A stretch of DNA of 64,000 bases from an uncultured Gemmatimonadales bacterium. GTDB taxonomy: Bacteria > Gemmatimonadota > Gemmatimonadetes > Gemmatimonadales > GWC2-71-9. Below, piece after piece: positions 24,660 through 36,958 of this stretch; the first letter of the stretch is position 1, and each line of letters opens with the position of its first letter. A program made the translations under genes and the position numbers. The stretch covers positions 1,280,001-1,344,000 of the forward strand of contig CAVZZO010000003.1 in the NCBI GenBank assembly GCA_963779755.1. Reading direction: 5' to 3'. The notes under the pieces were generated by a model that saw only the letters and a list, made by a program, of their open reading frames with translations, searched no databases and was not told the origin of the DNA.

Positions 24660-25244
24660 TCAGCTCTGGTTCCCCGCAAACAGCACGTTGTACAACACCA
24701 GCCCGTGGTGCACGGCCGTCGCGATCAGCTCGGCTTCGTAGTACGGCATGGAACCGAGCTGGTCCTTGAGCCCGTCCAGGGCCCCCGCCACCTGCTCCCC
24801 CGAGCGCATCCCCTTGAAGCGCTGCAGCAGACCGGTGCGCAGCGCCTCTTCGACCCACGGCTTGGTCTCCACGGTGGCCACCGTCGCCACCACGTCGGCG
24901 ATGGAGCCGTCGGGGTTCATGGTCAGGCCCACTTCCAGCGGCCCATGGACCGTGTTCACCTGGGGGAAGAAGACCACCCCCTGCAGCTCGCCCCCGGCAT
25001 TCTTCCCGAGATAGAACTTCATGTCGGGATCCTGCGGGTTCCAGTCCACTTTCGCCTGAATGGCGTCGAGGTCGTTCTTTCCGATGGTCACGTCACGGAC
25101 GAAGAACCGCGTGGCGCCGGGCAGCGTCTGGCGGATGACGTCCACCTGTTTCGCCAGCACCACCTTGGGGGTGGGGTGCGCCCGCGGAACGAGCAACAGC
25201 GGCAGGGCCAGCGCGGCGCCGGCCAGTCGGGACAACCCTCGCAT
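24660..25244 (-). CDS. Exported protein, FMN-binding-domain-like (RnfG/NqrC-type fold), lacking a clear flavinylation motif
   Basis: Signal peptide MRGLSRLAGAALALPLLLVPRA; TVHGPLEVGLTMNPDGSIADV; LLQRFKG; no SGAT motif. Confidence 0.65.
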   Translation of the reverse strand: MRGLSRLAGAALALPLLLVPRAHPTPKVVLAKQVDVIRQTLPGATRFFVRDVTIGKNDLDAIQAKVDWNPQDPDMKFYLGKNAGGELQGVVFFPQVNTVHGPLEVGLTMNPDGSIADVVATVATVETKPWVEEALRTGLLQRFKGMRSGEQVAGALDGLKDQLGSMPYYEAELIATAVHHGLVLYNVLFAGNQS

Positions 25245-25246
25245 GT

Positions 25247-25801
25247 TCAGACCTCCTGTCCGGTCCGGCGCGCCGTCACGGCGCGCAGGGTTCCGATGAG
25301 TACGATAAGATAGACCAGCGACATCCCCCAGCCGGATACGATCGTCAGCCAGGCGAAGCCGGGAATGCCGAAGTTCATCAGCCACTGTCCGGCAAAGTCC
25401 AGTGCTCCGAACCCGAAGGCGCCGAGGATCATCAGCTCGCGAAATCCGCGGGACCACCCCAGGCCAAGAATGATGAGCGTCTCCAGGGCCGCCACGATGG
25501 AGTAGATCATGATGTGAATATGGCTGTCCTGGACCAGCAGCTGGGTATCCACGGTATGCTGCATTTCCGGCACCTTGCCCAGATCGAGCGGCTGGGTCAT
25601 GGACATCGACGTATCGGGCATGCCCGATTCCTTGACGGCCGGCGGGGGCACGTAGGTCGCCTGCACCTTGGCCGGCGTCAGCCCGGACCAGGTCTTCACC
25701 ATGAAGAAGGCGAAGATGTAGGCGTAGCCCAGCACCAGCAGAAACAGCACGGCGGCCAGTTTGACCGAGCGGTCGGCGTCCCGGAGACGATAGAGACCCA
25801 T
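25247..25801 (-). CDS. Four-TM membrane protein with a Met-rich loop and HxH motif
   Basis: Loop GMPDTSMSMTQ...EMQH; DSHIHIM at the start of TM2. Confidence 0.75.
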   Translation of the reverse strand: MGLYRLRDADRSVKLAAVLFLLVLGYAYIFAFFMVKTWSGLTPAKVQATYVPPPAVKESGMPDTSMSMTQPLDLGKVPEMQHTVDTQLLVQDSHIHIMIYSIVAALETLIILGLGWSRGFRELMILGAFGFGALDFAGQWLMNFGIPGFAWLTIVSGWGMSLVYLIVLIGTLRAVTARRTGQEV

Positions 25802-25809
25802 GGATGCTC

Positions 25810-26976
25810 CTAGAAGAACGTCACCACCGTCTGCAGCCGGTATTCGATGTTCCAGTTGTCCAGGCCGCTACTGGTTTCGAAGACCGGCTCGGTGGAGTGG
25901 TTGACCCGCACTTCCGCCCGAAACTGCAGCTGGGGAATGCGATAGGTGGTGTGCTGCACGTTGGCGAAGATGCCCTCGCGCCCCACGCCCAGCGAATACA
26001 CCGGCGCAAAGGTGTAGGACGTCAGGGTCTGCGCCGTGCCGGTGCGCATCCCGTCGCCGTCGTGGAATACCTCGGCCCGGCCGGCCAGCCCGAAATGGCG
26101 GCTCAACTGGTGGAAGACGGTCAGCATGGCGCCCGCCCAGGTGGCATCGCCACCGCCCGCCAGCACCTTCCGGTCGCCGCCGTAGTTGGCCTCGCCGGCG
26201 ATGATCCAGTTCCAGGTGGGCTGCAGCGCGTAGTCGAAGGTGAGGAGGTAGCGGTTATTGGTCATGCCCTGGTCGCCCTCGACGCCGTAGAGGCCGCTCA
26301 GGCCCAGACTGACCCCGTCGGCCGGCAGCAGCCCCAGCCGGGCGCCGCCGCTCTTCCCCTTGTTGGGATCGATATCGCTATCCCAGCCGTTGAACACAAA
26401 GGCGGAGACGTCCACCCGCGGAGTGGCAGCCCAGAAGCTCATGACGCCCACCATCTTGACCGGCCGCGCCAGCTCGAAGTTGTAGCTGGGCGAGGCCAGC
26501 AGGTTCAGAGGCTCGTCGTCGCGCTCGAACCCGATCGGCAGGTCCACCTTCCCGAAGTTGAACAGGAGATTGCTCGCGCCCGGCACGGTCACGCTCACCA
26601 GCAGATTATCGATCTCGGTCTCGGTGACCGGCTCGCCGCCGGGTGTCTCCGGCGCGCCCAGGGCCGTGGTGAGCTGGCCGAAGAAATAGCTGTAGTCGGT
26701 GATCGGCTTGAAGACGCCGACTGCGACCTTGCTGGCTTCGAAAGTGTTGGTTCCGGTGCGGCCGTCATAGTTGTAGTTCCCGACCCCGAACCCGGTCACC
26801 TGCAGCGCGTTCTGGTCGCCGCTGGAGAGGTTCAGTGACTGGTCGCCTCCCTCGAGACTGATGGGGTGGTCGCCCGAATCCGGGACCTGAGCCCGCGCCG
26901 TGCCGGTCAAGCCGGCCAGGGCGGCCAGGGCCAGCAGCATGGCTCCCACCCGGGGGGTGATCGGTGAGATATGCAT
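25810..26976 (-). CDS. Outer-membrane beta-barrel porin
   Basis: Signal peptide ending ARAQ, alternating amphipathic strands, FGKVDLPIGFE, FNGWD, terminal Phe (TVVTFF); GCGGAGG SD. Confidence 0.85.
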   Translation of the reverse strand: MHISPITPRVGAMLLALAALAGLTGTARAQVPDSGDHPISLEGGDQSLNLSSGDQNALQVTGFGVGNYNYDGRTGTNTFEASKVAVGVFKPITDYSYFFGQLTTALGAPETPGGEPVTETEIDNLLVSVTVPGASNLLFNFGKVDLPIGFERDDEPLNLLASPSYNFELARPVKMVGVMSFWAATPRVDVSAFVFNGWDSDIDPNKGKSGGARLGLLPADGVSLGLSGLYGVEGDQGMTNNRYLLTFDYALQPTWNWIIAGEANYGGDRKVLAGGGDATWAGAMLTVFHQLSRHFGLAGRAEVFHDGDGMRTGTAQTLTSYTFAPVYSLGVGREGIFANVQHTTYRIPQLQFRAEVRVNHSTEPVFETSSGLDNWNIEYRLQTVVTFF

Positions 26977-27076
26977 GGTCCTCCGCAGAGTTCGCAGCCA
27001 ATAGTCCGCGCCGCCGGACCATGGCGGCCGCGGGCGTGCAGGGTGCACGTCGCCTTGAGCAGTCAGGGGAAGCGCG

Positions 27077-27430
27077 TCAGGCGAGGCGCGGAGGCGGCGG
27101 ATCGGCGGAGAGGGTGTGCCGGGTCTGGAGCTGCGGCAGAAATACCGGCTCCTCCGACAGGAGGCGGCCAGCCGGCAAGGCTGCGACCGGCTCGGCCTGC
27201 AACATGGGCGAGAGCCCCTGCTGCATCAGGGGCGTGTGCGCTGCTACACCTTCGGTGTGGCAGGCCGCGCCGTGCATGGCCATCGGCATTTCGCCGGCGC
27301 CGGTATGAGGCGTTTCGGCCCGTGGAGCGCCGCCGGCGCTCAGGCAGATTACCGCGCAGACCACCCACGCCTGGGCCGCCACAAAGGCGGCCAGGACGGC
27401 GAGTGCGGAGAGGCGGCGGCGCAGCGGCAT
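27077..27430 (-). CDS. CutF/CruR(DUF2946)-like leader peptide, 117 aa
   Basis: Signal/TM N-terminus, CAVIC, EMPMAMHGAACH, C-terminal DPPPPRLA; C-terminal part of track ORF 27077..28192, restarted at ATG 27430. Confidence 0.78.
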   Translation of the reverse strand: MPLRRRLSALAVLAAFVAAQAWVVCAVICLSAGGAPRAETPHTGAGEMPMAMHGAACHTEGVAAHTPLMQQGLSPMLQAEPVAALPAGRLLSEEPVFLPQLQTRHTLSADPPPPRLA

Positions 27431-27553
27431 CAGGTCGAAAATCCCCGAAAGTGTGGGAGGTTTAAGGTAACACTGGTCCGGAGGACAGGGTACCCGCTTG
27501 GCCCCGGGCCCGCAGTGGTCTATGCTCAGCGCATCGTTCTGCCAGGAGGAGAC

Positions 27554-28273
27554 ATGCGGCTCCGGGTCGGCACCAGCGGCTACGCGTACAAGGAATGGAA
27601 GGGCTCGTTCTACCCGGCCGACCTGAAGCCGGAGCGGATGCTCGCCCATTACGCGTCGCGGCTCGACACGGTCGAGATCAACAACACCTTCTACCGCATG
27701 CCGTCGGAGACGGTGCTGCTGGGGTGGGCCGGCCAGGTGCCGGCGGAGTTCCGCTTCGTGCTGAAGGCGCCGCGCCGGCTGACCCATATCCAGCGGCTGA
27801 CCATCGAAGACGACAGCCTGGAGTACTTCCTGCGCACGGCCGGGGTGCTGGGGGAGCGGCTGGGCGCCGCCCTCTTTCAGCTTCCTCCCACCCTCAAGAA
27901 GGACACCGGCCGCCTGGCCGGATTCCTCGCCCGGCTTCCCCGTACGTGGCGCAGCGCCTTCGAGTTCCGCCATGCCTCCTGGCTGGACGATGACGTTCTG
28001 GCGCTGCTGCGTGAGCACAACGCCGCCCTCTGCCTGGCCGATACCGACGAAGCTCCGGCCTCGCCCCTGGTGACGGCGGACTGGGGCTATCTCCGGCTGC
28101 GCCGCTCCGGCTATTCCCGCGAAGATCTGGCGGCCTGGGCCCGGCGCATCCGGGAGCAGCCCTGGACGGCGGCGTACGTTTTCCTCAAGCACGAGGACAC
28201 CGGCGCCGGACCGGAACTGGCCGAAGCGCTGCTCGAGCTGGCGGGCGGGACGGGCGAGGCTACTTCATCTTGA
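27554..28273 (+). CDS. DUF72 (YecE-like) protein
   Basis: VGTSGYAYKEWKGSFYP, VEINNTFY, LFQLPP, AFEFRHASW, YLRLR. Confidence 0.93.
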   Translation: MRLRVGTSGYAYKEWKGSFYPADLKPERMLAHYASRLDTVEINNTFYRMPSETVLLGWAGQVPAEFRFVLKAPRRLTHIQRLTIEDDSLEYFLRTAGVLGERLGAALFQLPPTLKKDTGRLAGFLARLPRTWRSAFEFRHASWLDDDVLALLREHNAALCLADTDEAPASPLVTADWGYLRLRRSGYSREDLAAWARRIREQPWTAAYVFLKHEDTGAGPELAEALLELAGGTGEATSS

Positions 28274-36400: not shown

Positions 36401-36958
36401 ATGAAAGCTTCCGATATCCGCCGCGGACATGTGATCATGTTCGGTGGTCATCCCTGCCGCGTGATGGACTTTACCCATCGCACCCCGGGCAACCTGCGCG
36501 CGTTCGTGCAGGCCCGGATGCGGGACCTGACCACCGGGAACACCTTCGACCACCGCTTCAGCGCCACCGAGTTCGTCGACGAGGCACGGCTGGACACCAA
36601 GGAGCTGCAGGTGCTCTACCGTGACGCCTCCGGCGTGCATGTCATGGACCAGCAGACCTTCGACCAGTACATGCTGGACGAAGAGACCACCGGCGACCAG
36701 GGCACCTGGCTGGAGCCGGGGATGAACTTCCAGGCCGAGTTCCTGGAGGGGCGGCCCATCGCCATCATGCTGCCCTCGGTCATCGAGCTGGAAGTGGTGG
36801 AGACGGCGCCGGTCATGAAGACCGCCACCAAGACGGCCAGCACCAAGCCGGCCAAGCTGAGCAACGGCGTCACCGTCCAGGTGCCGGAGTTCATTCCCGA
36901 AGGCGAGCGTGTCCGGGTGAACCCGGCCACGGGCGAGTATCTGGAGCGGGCCAAGTAG
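36401..36958 (+). CDS. efp: Elongation factor P
   Basis: KOW loop HRTPGNLRAFVQ, MDQQTFDQ, TKPAKLSNGVTVQVPEFI..GE.VRV....GEYLERA. Confidence 0.93.
   Translation: MKASDIRRGHVIMFGGHPCRVMDFTHRTPGNLRAFVQARMRDLTTGNTFDHRFSATEFVDEARLDTKELQVLYRDASGVHVMDQQTFDQYMLDEETTGDQGTWLEPGMNFQAEFLEGRPIAIMLPSVIELEVVETAPVMKTATKTASTKPAKLSNGVTVQVPEFIPEGERVRVNPATGEYLERAK

Follow-up and report, generated by a model that had tools for sequence, protein, structure and literature searches.

Proline codons at the end of a CutF-like leader as a candidate anti-Shine-Dalgarno for a porin gene in Gemmatimonadota

Can the codons on which a ribosome would arrest at the end of a leader peptide also mask the next gene's ribosome binding site? 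The question is raised by a gene pair in a 64,000-nucleotide stretch of DNA from an uncultured Gemmatimonadales bacterium (GenBank assembly GCA_963779755.1, contig CAVZZO010000003.1; the whole stretch is referred to as the window, and positions are counted within it), where a small leader gene and a BBP2 porin gene share the minus strand with 100 nt between them. An earlier note on this DNA had proposed that the terminal proline codons of the leader are an anti-Shine-Dalgarno (anti-SD) for the porin gene, that a ribosome stalled on them would cover the anti-SD and switch porin translation, and that a second, 8-bp complementarity covers the porin start codon. What that note had read from the letters was confirmed on the minus strand: the codons CCG CCG CCT CCG CGC lie at 27100-27086, CCUCCGC within them (27094-27088) is the exact complement of the porin Shine-Dalgarno sequence (SD) GCGGAGG (26986-26980), and CAUGGUCC (27023-27016) is complementary at every base to GGACCAUG (26981-26974), a stretch that takes in the porin ATG. 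The explanation that we favor, with a probability of about 0.6, is that the porin SD is unmasked by ribosome arrest in the manner of CutF or SecM, with either the arrest codons or the leader's final codons serving as the anti-SD.

The gene pair is conserved. A leader-type open reading frame (ORF) lies upstream of the porin in 78 of the 80 loci collected with the porin alignment; by the filter used, L053 and L067 have no leader ORF, the picks at L064, L083, L091 and L095 are doubtful, and L045 is identical to L009. Nearly all homologous loci are from Gemmatimonadota, with porin orthologues at 37-70% identity. Among 61 related genomes, all six porin orthologues have an upstream ORF of 112-121 aa that is hydrophobic in an N-terminal segment, contains Cys/His motifs and shows PPP at a distance of 3-5 residues from its stop. 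C29 and PPP are invariant in the alignment of the relatives' leaders, as are C25, C29, C57 and PPPR in 13 leaders of the subfamily. The endings take the forms PPPPR-x-x, (S/T)PPPR-x, PPPPN-x-x-x and APP(L/R/Q/H)-x-x-x, the stop codon stands 3-5 codons past the proline run in all loci, and the spacers extend from 35 to ~280 nt, many being only 35-50 nt long. The set for codon counts comprised 84 homologous loci with a leader-porin pair.

The choice of proline codons is the strongest result. CCT makes up 34.8% of the 293 codons in the terminal runs of the 84 loci, versus 8.9% elsewhere in the leaders and 4.7% in the porin genes, and this preference depends on position within the run: 6% at the last codon, 69% at the penultimate, 39% at the third from the end and 21% at the fourth. 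The penultimate codon is CCU in 58 loci, including the one in the window. CCTCC occurs inside the terminal run in 71 of 84 loci, where 9.5-17.3 are expected and 30 was the maximum in 2000 draws from background usage. Neighbouring third positions take all four bases freely, and the codon signal is therefore not mere shared ancestry; 46 distinct run strings occur. In the genome at hand CCT accounts for 6.2% of proline codons and 7.9% of the codons in PPP+ runs, and CCTCC is found in 73 of 409 such runs.

In Escherichia coli, CCU followed by C is reported to be selected against in proline pairs, on account of the +1 frameshifting that it promotes (PMC8129111; this and the other papers are cited for the accessible part of their text). 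A programmed +1 frameshift at CCU-C was considered for the present family and rejected, as the first stop in the +1 frame is scattered from -241 to beyond +399 (71 loci) and this frame coincides with that of the porin in 22 of 71, about chance, remaining open to the porin start in 10 of these. In the window itself (26977-27100, minus strand), a +1 shift from the leader would lead into the porin frame, and no stop interrupts that frame from before the proline run through the spacer, an arrangement that the family does not conserve.

Folding across the family points to the same bases. For 27 short-spacer loci, RNAalifold returned CCUCC:GGAGG as the sole consensus helix. A bacterial ribosome covers ~30 nt of mRNA, here taken as -15 to +17 nt around the arrest site. 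In single-sequence partition functions on 81 loci (three loci without an SD core at the chosen start were omitted), the SD core is predicted to pair at P > 0.5 with the proline run in 46 and with the stall footprint in 54. Native proline codons raise the predicted cost of opening the region from SD to AUG by 2.24 kcal/mol on average over synonymous recodings, the cost being higher in 70 of 81 loci (shortened context, 5 recodings per locus). Blocking the stall footprint lowers that cost by 3.53 kcal/mol, versus 0.54 kcal/mol for an equal footprint placed 33 nt upstream, and the drop exceeds that of the control footprint in 66 of 81 loci. Duplexes between cognate leader tails and SDs average -17.7 kcal/mol versus -15.6 kcal/mol for non-cognate ones. 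Where CCUCC is lacking from the run, or the SD is GGGAG-like, an anti-SD is often located just upstream of the run; in other such loci it follows the stop codon immediately (UCUCCCUCC, CCUCCUCC), still under the footprint.

Two further features of these alignments may be recorded here. In five loci with (S/T)PPPR-x endings and long spacers (L043, L049, L054, L062 and L063), an anti-SD-like run stands directly after the leader stop, as UGA-UCUCCCUCC or UGA-CCUCCUCC, and faces porin SDs of the GGGAG or GGAGG type. In the alignment of PPPPN-type loci (A4), columns 23-27 with 42-46 form a possible inner hairpin AACGGG / CCCGUU with the leader UGA in its loop, which would stack under the helix CCUCCGA:UCGGAGG; pairing holds for 76% of the hairpin's cells, and double-sided changes are absent.

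Sequence variation around the helix was examined with extension counts anchored on CCUCC and GGAGG in 58 loci. Toward the loop, the helix extends by 1.33 pairs on average versus 0.74 with permuted partners (0 of 5000 permutations reach 1.33); on the outer side, the extension is 0.83 versus 0.57 pairs (p = 0.008). When the synonymous base after CCUCC is compared with the base before GGAGG, A:U accounts for 7 of 9 cases, C:G for 5 of 10 and G:C for 23 of 38, and at this synonymous site A:U, G:C, C:G and G:U all occur. Switches within clades of the porin tree include L079, with A:U among G:C and G:U relatives, L039 (A:U) versus L035 (G:C), and L046, with G:C among C:G relatives. The inner side in register gives 34 Watson-Crick and 4 G-U pairs of 57, versus 6-15 Watson-Crick pairs in slid registers, and the PPPPN-type alignments of 11 and 26 loci are 95-97% paired in the helix versus 27-53% in slid registers. 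A model-fitted alignment of 26 loci has one double-sided change in the outer helix, and among the 27 loci used for RNAalifold no pair changed on both sides.

At the locus in the window, the fold is less simple than the earlier note had supposed. The range 27130..26960 (171 nt) folds to -68.5 kcal/mol (z = -2.2) and, in line with that note, the SD is paired in the free mRNA (P = 0.97, both in this range and in a 211-nt context), but its partner in the minimum free energy (MFE) structure and in the ensemble is UCUCCGC (27111-27105, P = 0.93) and not the proline codons, which are predicted to pair with a G-rich stretch of the spacer. Forcing the CCUCCGC:SD helix costs 3.2 kcal/mol (-84.5 versus -87.7 kcal/mol), within the error of such models. 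UCUCCGC, which is not seen in the leader tails of the nearest relatives L024-L033, lies 11-17 nt upstream of the anti-SD in the proline codons, and both copies fall within the footprint when the P-site holds proline codon 2 or 3. The predicted cost of opening the region from SD to AUG is 10.7 kcal/mol in the free mRNA, 6.4 kcal/mol with the stall footprint blocked and 8.1 kcal/mol with a terminating ribosome. In silico, the SD sequestration on which arrest-controlled unmasking of the SecM/CutF kind depends is thus predicted, together with its loosening by a ribosome at the arrest site.

The second complementarity did not survive as a structure and was rejected. An exact helix of at least 8 bp over the start codon arises in only 14 of 5000 spacer shuffles, for an element chosen post hoc; the predicted pairing probability of CAUGGUCC with GGACCAUG is 0.000-0.005, forcing the helix costs 11.3 kcal/mol (-76.4 versus -87.7 kcal/mol), and CAUGGUCC is predicted to lie in a local hairpin with CGGACUAU instead. 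Exact helices of at least 6 bp over the start codon are found in just 2 of 84 loci, this one (8 bp) and L083 (7 bp), so that as a regulator the element is unconserved as well as not predicted to form. Since the 3' arms of the two helices share positions 26981-26980, an overlap of 2 bases, both could not form fully in any case. Within the 5' arm of this element, at 27020-27022 on the minus strand, an AUG (GCCGCCAUGG) lies out of frame and begins an ORF of 85 codons, which overlaps the start of the porin; an SD before this AUG was not seen.

Several observations weigh against assigning the anti-SD role to the proline codons. At this locus, the SD is predicted to pair with the proline-codon CCUCCGC at only P = 0.011 and, with the stall footprint blocked, it still pairs (P = 0.78) with a weaker site in the spacer. 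An exact complement of GCGGAGG turns up in 906 of 5000 dinucleotide shuffles (18%) of the leader's last 60 nt plus stop; therefore, taken at this locus alone, the 7-bp match is weak evidence, not beyond chance in a C-rich tail, and the caution of the earlier note that a match of 7-8 bp may be fortuitous was well placed. Across the family, 13 of 84 loci have no CCUCC in the proline run, and in 35 of 81 the SD is not predicted to have the run as its main partner. All of the pairing is predicted, the SD is paired with something in 81 of 81 loci, and RNA of such GC content is predicted by these models to pair almost anywhere; the mean opening cost across loci with the footprint blocked is still 10.3 kcal/mol. 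The loci are also kin, and the Wilcoxon and permutation p-values overstate the case. In tests that take relatedness into account, A-versus-G contrasts gave 3-4 concordant and 0 discordant among 6 independent pairs (p = 0.125), and C-versus-G contrasts only 1 concordant among 5-6 (p = 1). The covariation score was reached by 400 of 500 shuffles in the 11-locus alignment and by 205 of 500 in the 26-locus alignment, and outer-side complementarity is 27 in register versus 26 in a slid register. In sum, the pairing proposed in the earlier note recurs in homologs, whereas covariation is not significant; judged from the alignments, the helix is conserved, not demonstrably covarying.

We therefore retain the idea of that note in a modified form, in which the 3' end of the gene for a CutF-like, putatively exported leader would be the anti-SD arm of a long-range helix sequestering the porin SD. 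In the family at large, the anti-SD would be the proline codons themselves, CCU followed by CCN placing CCUCC opposite GGAGG, as favored by the frequency of CCUCC in the runs, the concentration of CCU at the penultimate codon, the sole consensus helix and the fall in opening cost under the stall footprint. At the locus in the window, which is predicted to fold with the neighbouring sequence, two candidate copies, CCUCCGC and UCUCCGC, would both lie under the arrested ribosome. A ribosome arrested on the polyproline would block the helix, and a second ribosome could then start on the porin; once the leader ribosome terminates and leaves, the helix would re-form and close the porin site. We infer that arrest on the polyproline does take place. 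From conserved Cys/His positions only, and by analogy with CutF and CruR, it may be supposed that the exported nascent chain binds a metal at its CxxxC/His motif and that this metal modulates the arrest. As for direction, the RNA logic would have the stall turn the porin on, and the metal may either prolong or relieve the stall.

Alternative explanations must account for the same bases. If the two genes were merely translationally coupled, any ribosome passing the end of the leader would open the SD, and the prolines would only lengthen the open time, with no sensing involved. A terminating ribosome does lower the predicted opening cost at this locus, from 10.7 to 8.1 kcal/mol, and in every locus the stop follows only 3-5 codons after the proline run; however, the leaders keep an export-type N-terminus and invariant Cys/His residues ~55 residues before the run, of which coupling has no need and which are required for copper control in CutF (PMC9973294) and CruR (PMC9426467), and we regard it as unlikely. 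A bias toward CCU could instead tune decoding or the strength of pausing at the arrest site, either because the codon is slow or rare or by way of which tRNA occupies the P-site; since GGAGG is opposed by any CCU-CCN, complementarity to the SD would then be incidental. In E. coli reporters, CCU makes diproline synthesis slower and increases pausing (PMC8129111), the runs are also about twofold richer in the other rare codon, CCA (11.9% versus 5%), and the formal covariation is weak. On the other hand, CCC, the slowest codon in E. coli (PMC8129111), is depleted in the runs (19.5% versus 36%), CCU is at background at the last proline codon, where CCUCC would not arise, and the RAPP motif of CruR is encoded by frequent codons (PMC9426467). 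Complementarity of the flanks is higher in register than in slid registers, and where the run lacks CCUCC, a different anti-SD often lies just upstream of it or directly behind the stop. A purely decoding or pausing role for the bias is quite unlikely.

Control of the CruR type, in which the arrested ribosome mainly blocks loading of Rho on the spacer, transcription read-through is the output and the helix is secondary, would suit a spacer that is C-rich, 100 nt long and devoid of an intrinsic terminator, and CruR acts in this way upstream of an outer-membrane transporter (PMC9426467). Many homologous spacers of just 35-50 nt are short for a Rho entry site, and the codon bias speaks for a role of the RNA in pairing with the SD, making this version very unlikely. 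Lastly, both complementarities at this locus might have arisen by chance in a genome of 68.5% GC, with the porin not under control of the leader, as the frequency of the 7-mer in shuffles and the lack of either helix of the earlier note from the MFE fold would allow; yet dozens of diverged loci share the gene pair and the CCUCC/GGAGG pairing, and this locus keeps CCU at the penultimate proline codon as do most of the others. Coincidence is accordingly highly improbable. Arrest-controlled unmasking of the porin SD by the end of the leader remains the preferred explanation.

The leader family is CutF-like by architecture and not by profile, because no leader reaches the threshold of Pfam DUF2946 (PF11162): the leader in the window (P0001) scores 10 bits (E = 1.5; cut-off 23.7), 15 other leaders give no match, and this locus is missing from the results when the whole genome is scanned with PF11162. 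Nothing significant was found for the leader in Pfam and NCBIfam. A single-sequence search gave only two close relatives, P0004 and P0005, neither with a Pfam domain, and metagenome scans with P0001 and with alignment A7 returned no relative. As to architecture, the filters used for CutF-like proteins (PMC9973294) ask for fewer than 150 aa, prolines at the C-terminus and proximity to the next gene, and the leader has 117 aa, ends in DPPPPRLA with an invariant PPP and lies 100 nt from the porin ATG. Those filters further call for a signal peptide at the N-terminus, where the leader has a putative one, and were applied to proteins gathered by iterative sequence searches seeded with the CutF neighbours of cutO. 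It does not conform to the CruR type of DUF2946, having PPPPR and CxxxC instead, with C57 54 residues before the proline run.

CutF is a small exported CxxxC protein with a C-terminal proline repeat, and an intergenic stem-loop shields the cutO SD (PMC9973294); Cu bound to the exported CxxxC has been proposed to prolong a polyproline arrest that EF-P cannot resolve (PMC9973294; 10.1101/2025.02.05.636593). CutF-cutO of Rhodobacter capsulatus thus shares with the present pair a small CxxxC leader with a proline C-terminus, encoded in cis upstream (Sec-exported in CutF and putatively so here), a shielded SD, as predicted here, and a proposed opening of that SD by arrest on prolines. It differs in that its anti-SD, CTTC (mutated to AAAA), is intergenic, whereas the anti-SD proposed here lies within the leader, in its arrest codons or its final ones, and in that it controls a multicopper oxidase and not, as here, a BBP2 porin in Gemmatimonadota behind a leader below the DUF2946 threshold. 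The main text of the CutF paper (PMC9973294) contains neither 'porin' nor 'Gemmatimonad', while its supplementary lists may include such neighbours.

The earlier note had also likened the locus to cruR-bfrG, a likeness that is loose, since PMC9426467 describes relief of RAPP arrest by copper followed by Rho-dependent termination and not a stem-loop model. In common with CruR (Bp2923)-bfrG of Bordetella pertussis there are an export signal (putative here), a Cys motif, a proline arrest motif three residues from the C-terminus and an upstream ORF heading the operon of an outer-membrane transporter; unlike it, the present leader has PPPPR and CxxxC in place of RAPP and CXXC, and CCU is strongly favored where RAPP uses frequent codons (PMC9426467). 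Arrested exported leaders that disrupt an SD-sequestering stem-loop are also known from SecM-secA, MifM-yidC2, VemP-secDF2 and newer Sec/YidC monitors (PMC10987492), which differ in monitoring the translocation machinery and in their arrest sequences; arrest codons acting as an anti-SD were not found in the accessible part of that paper. In mgtL/mgtP of Salmonella (PMC3641672), translation of proline codons in the leader likewise decides the mRNA structure, but the output is transcription attenuation in response to cytoplasmic signals, with no export signal and no masking of an SD by proline codons.

For the arrest peptides studied in the papers cited here, the masking element is described as a stem-loop separating the genes or sequestering the SD (PMC9973294; PMC10987492). 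In the present family, one short stretch of nucleotides appears to serve twice, as code for the arrest motif and as a mask for the gene that follows, and its mark is an unusually sharp preference among synonymous codons, with CCU at 69% in one position against a background of 5-9%. Among the papers listed by a literature search, no title or abstract opening states that proline arrest codons double as an anti-SD, and a full-text search found no publication joining DUF2946 with Gemmatimonad. We rate the class of mechanism as known; as new we rate the double role proposed for the arrest codons, along with the operon of the porin and a leader family that had gone unrecognised. CutF-like sensing would thereby reach a phylum that has been little studied and an operon headed by a porin control leader, through a leader family that Pfam does not recognise. 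The roles of RNA and peptide are separable by synonymous and compensatory changes, and the family suggests a simple search rule for such switches: a leader in which CCU-CCN precedes the stop by a few codons, with GGAGG coming after it.

That proline arrest motifs are built-in anti-SDs in general, with dual coding in CutF-like and other polyproline leaders beyond the Gemmatimonadota family, is a possibility that we put forward tentatively and think doubtful. In that generalization CCU-CCN would both stall the ribosome and mask GGAGG, because CCN opposes GG; if true, the stalled ribosome would be the only 'anti-anti-SD' needed, and the benefit would override the avoidance of frameshift-prone CCU-C. 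Two hints bear on it: in another leader type of the same class, RAPPLPISL-stop, the last codons CCAUCUCUC oppose GAGAGAUGG of the next gene, and 5 of 14 RAPP-type leaders there begin their proline pair with CCU.

Some leaders of this kind deserve separate mention. DUF2946-type leaders at L109, L110, L113, L115 and L123 end in RAPPLP(I/V)SL-stop (RAPPLFISL-stop at L113) with last codons like CCAUCUCUC, and its complement GAGAGAUGG sits just before the ATG of the next gene, by appearance an ABC ATPase. The genome that contains the window also has a second, CruR-type leader outside it (contig C1, ~382939-383450, minus strand), which ends in RAPPAV-stop, is the genome's best DUF2946 match (15.3 bits, below the cut-off), again encodes its proline pair as CCT CCC and has a TolC-like outer-membrane efflux gene 170 nt downstream.

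Table 1. Features of the leader-porin locus, in window positions
Feature	Position	Strand	Basis or remark
Leader ORF P0001, 117 aa + stop (ATG 27430, TGA 27079-27077)	27077..27430	-	translation
CxxxC codons of the leader, C25 A V I C29	27344..27358	-	translation
Terminal proline run CCG CCG CCT CCG (P111-P114), putative arrest motif	27089..27100	-	translation
Anti-SD of the earlier note, CCUCCGC, in Pro-Pro-Arg codons	27088..27094	-	exact complement of 26986-26980
Alternative anti-SD UCUCCGC, in T-L-S-A codons	27105..27111	-	SD partner favored by folding here
Spacer, 100 nt, internal GC-rich hairpins	26977..27076	-	folding
Porin Shine-Dalgarno region GCGGAGG	26980..26986	-	sequence
CAUGGUCC, 5' arm of the second element	27016..27023	-	sequence
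GGACCAUG, 3' arm of the second element, holding the porin ATG (26976-26974)	26974..26981	-	sequence
BBP2 (OmpL-like) beta-barrel porin gene P0002, 388 aa + stop	25810..26976	-	PF07642 match
Four-helix membrane protein, 184 aa, similar to Aq_1264_TM	25247..25801	-	conserved downstream of porin
Secreted-looking protein P0006, 194 aa	24660..25244	-	conserved downstream of porin

The features of the locus are collected in Table 1. The N-terminus of the leader, MPLRRRLSALAVLAAFVAAQAWVV, is basic and then hydrophobic (judged by eye), and its translation further includes H53 and a His/Met-rich stretch with C57-H58. The porin matches PF07642 over residues 105-387 with 103.9 bits (gathering cut-off 26.2) in a hidden Markov model (HMM) search. 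The next gene upstream (DUF72, plus strand) diverges, so that the leader heads its transcription unit. A scan of 25600-27700 showed no sigma-70-like promoter, the spacer has no site resembling an intrinsic terminator, and an Rfam scan of 26700-27700 gave no match with E below 0.37. Downstream, the 184-aa protein has an Atlas feature score of 0.96 to PF27139 (Aq_1264_TM) clusters and a weak DUF2484 match (E = 0.0029), while the 194-aa protein, searched with a longer ORF, gave no match in Pfam and NCBIfam. Both genes are kept downstream of the porin in most homologous loci; the membrane protein is probably part of the porin's operon, and the conserved order across 24660-25801 suggests a four-gene operon. 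The genome also contains a gene for EF-P, and the C-terminal domain of elongation factor P is encoded within the window at 36782-36949 on the plus strand, ~10 kb from the leader.

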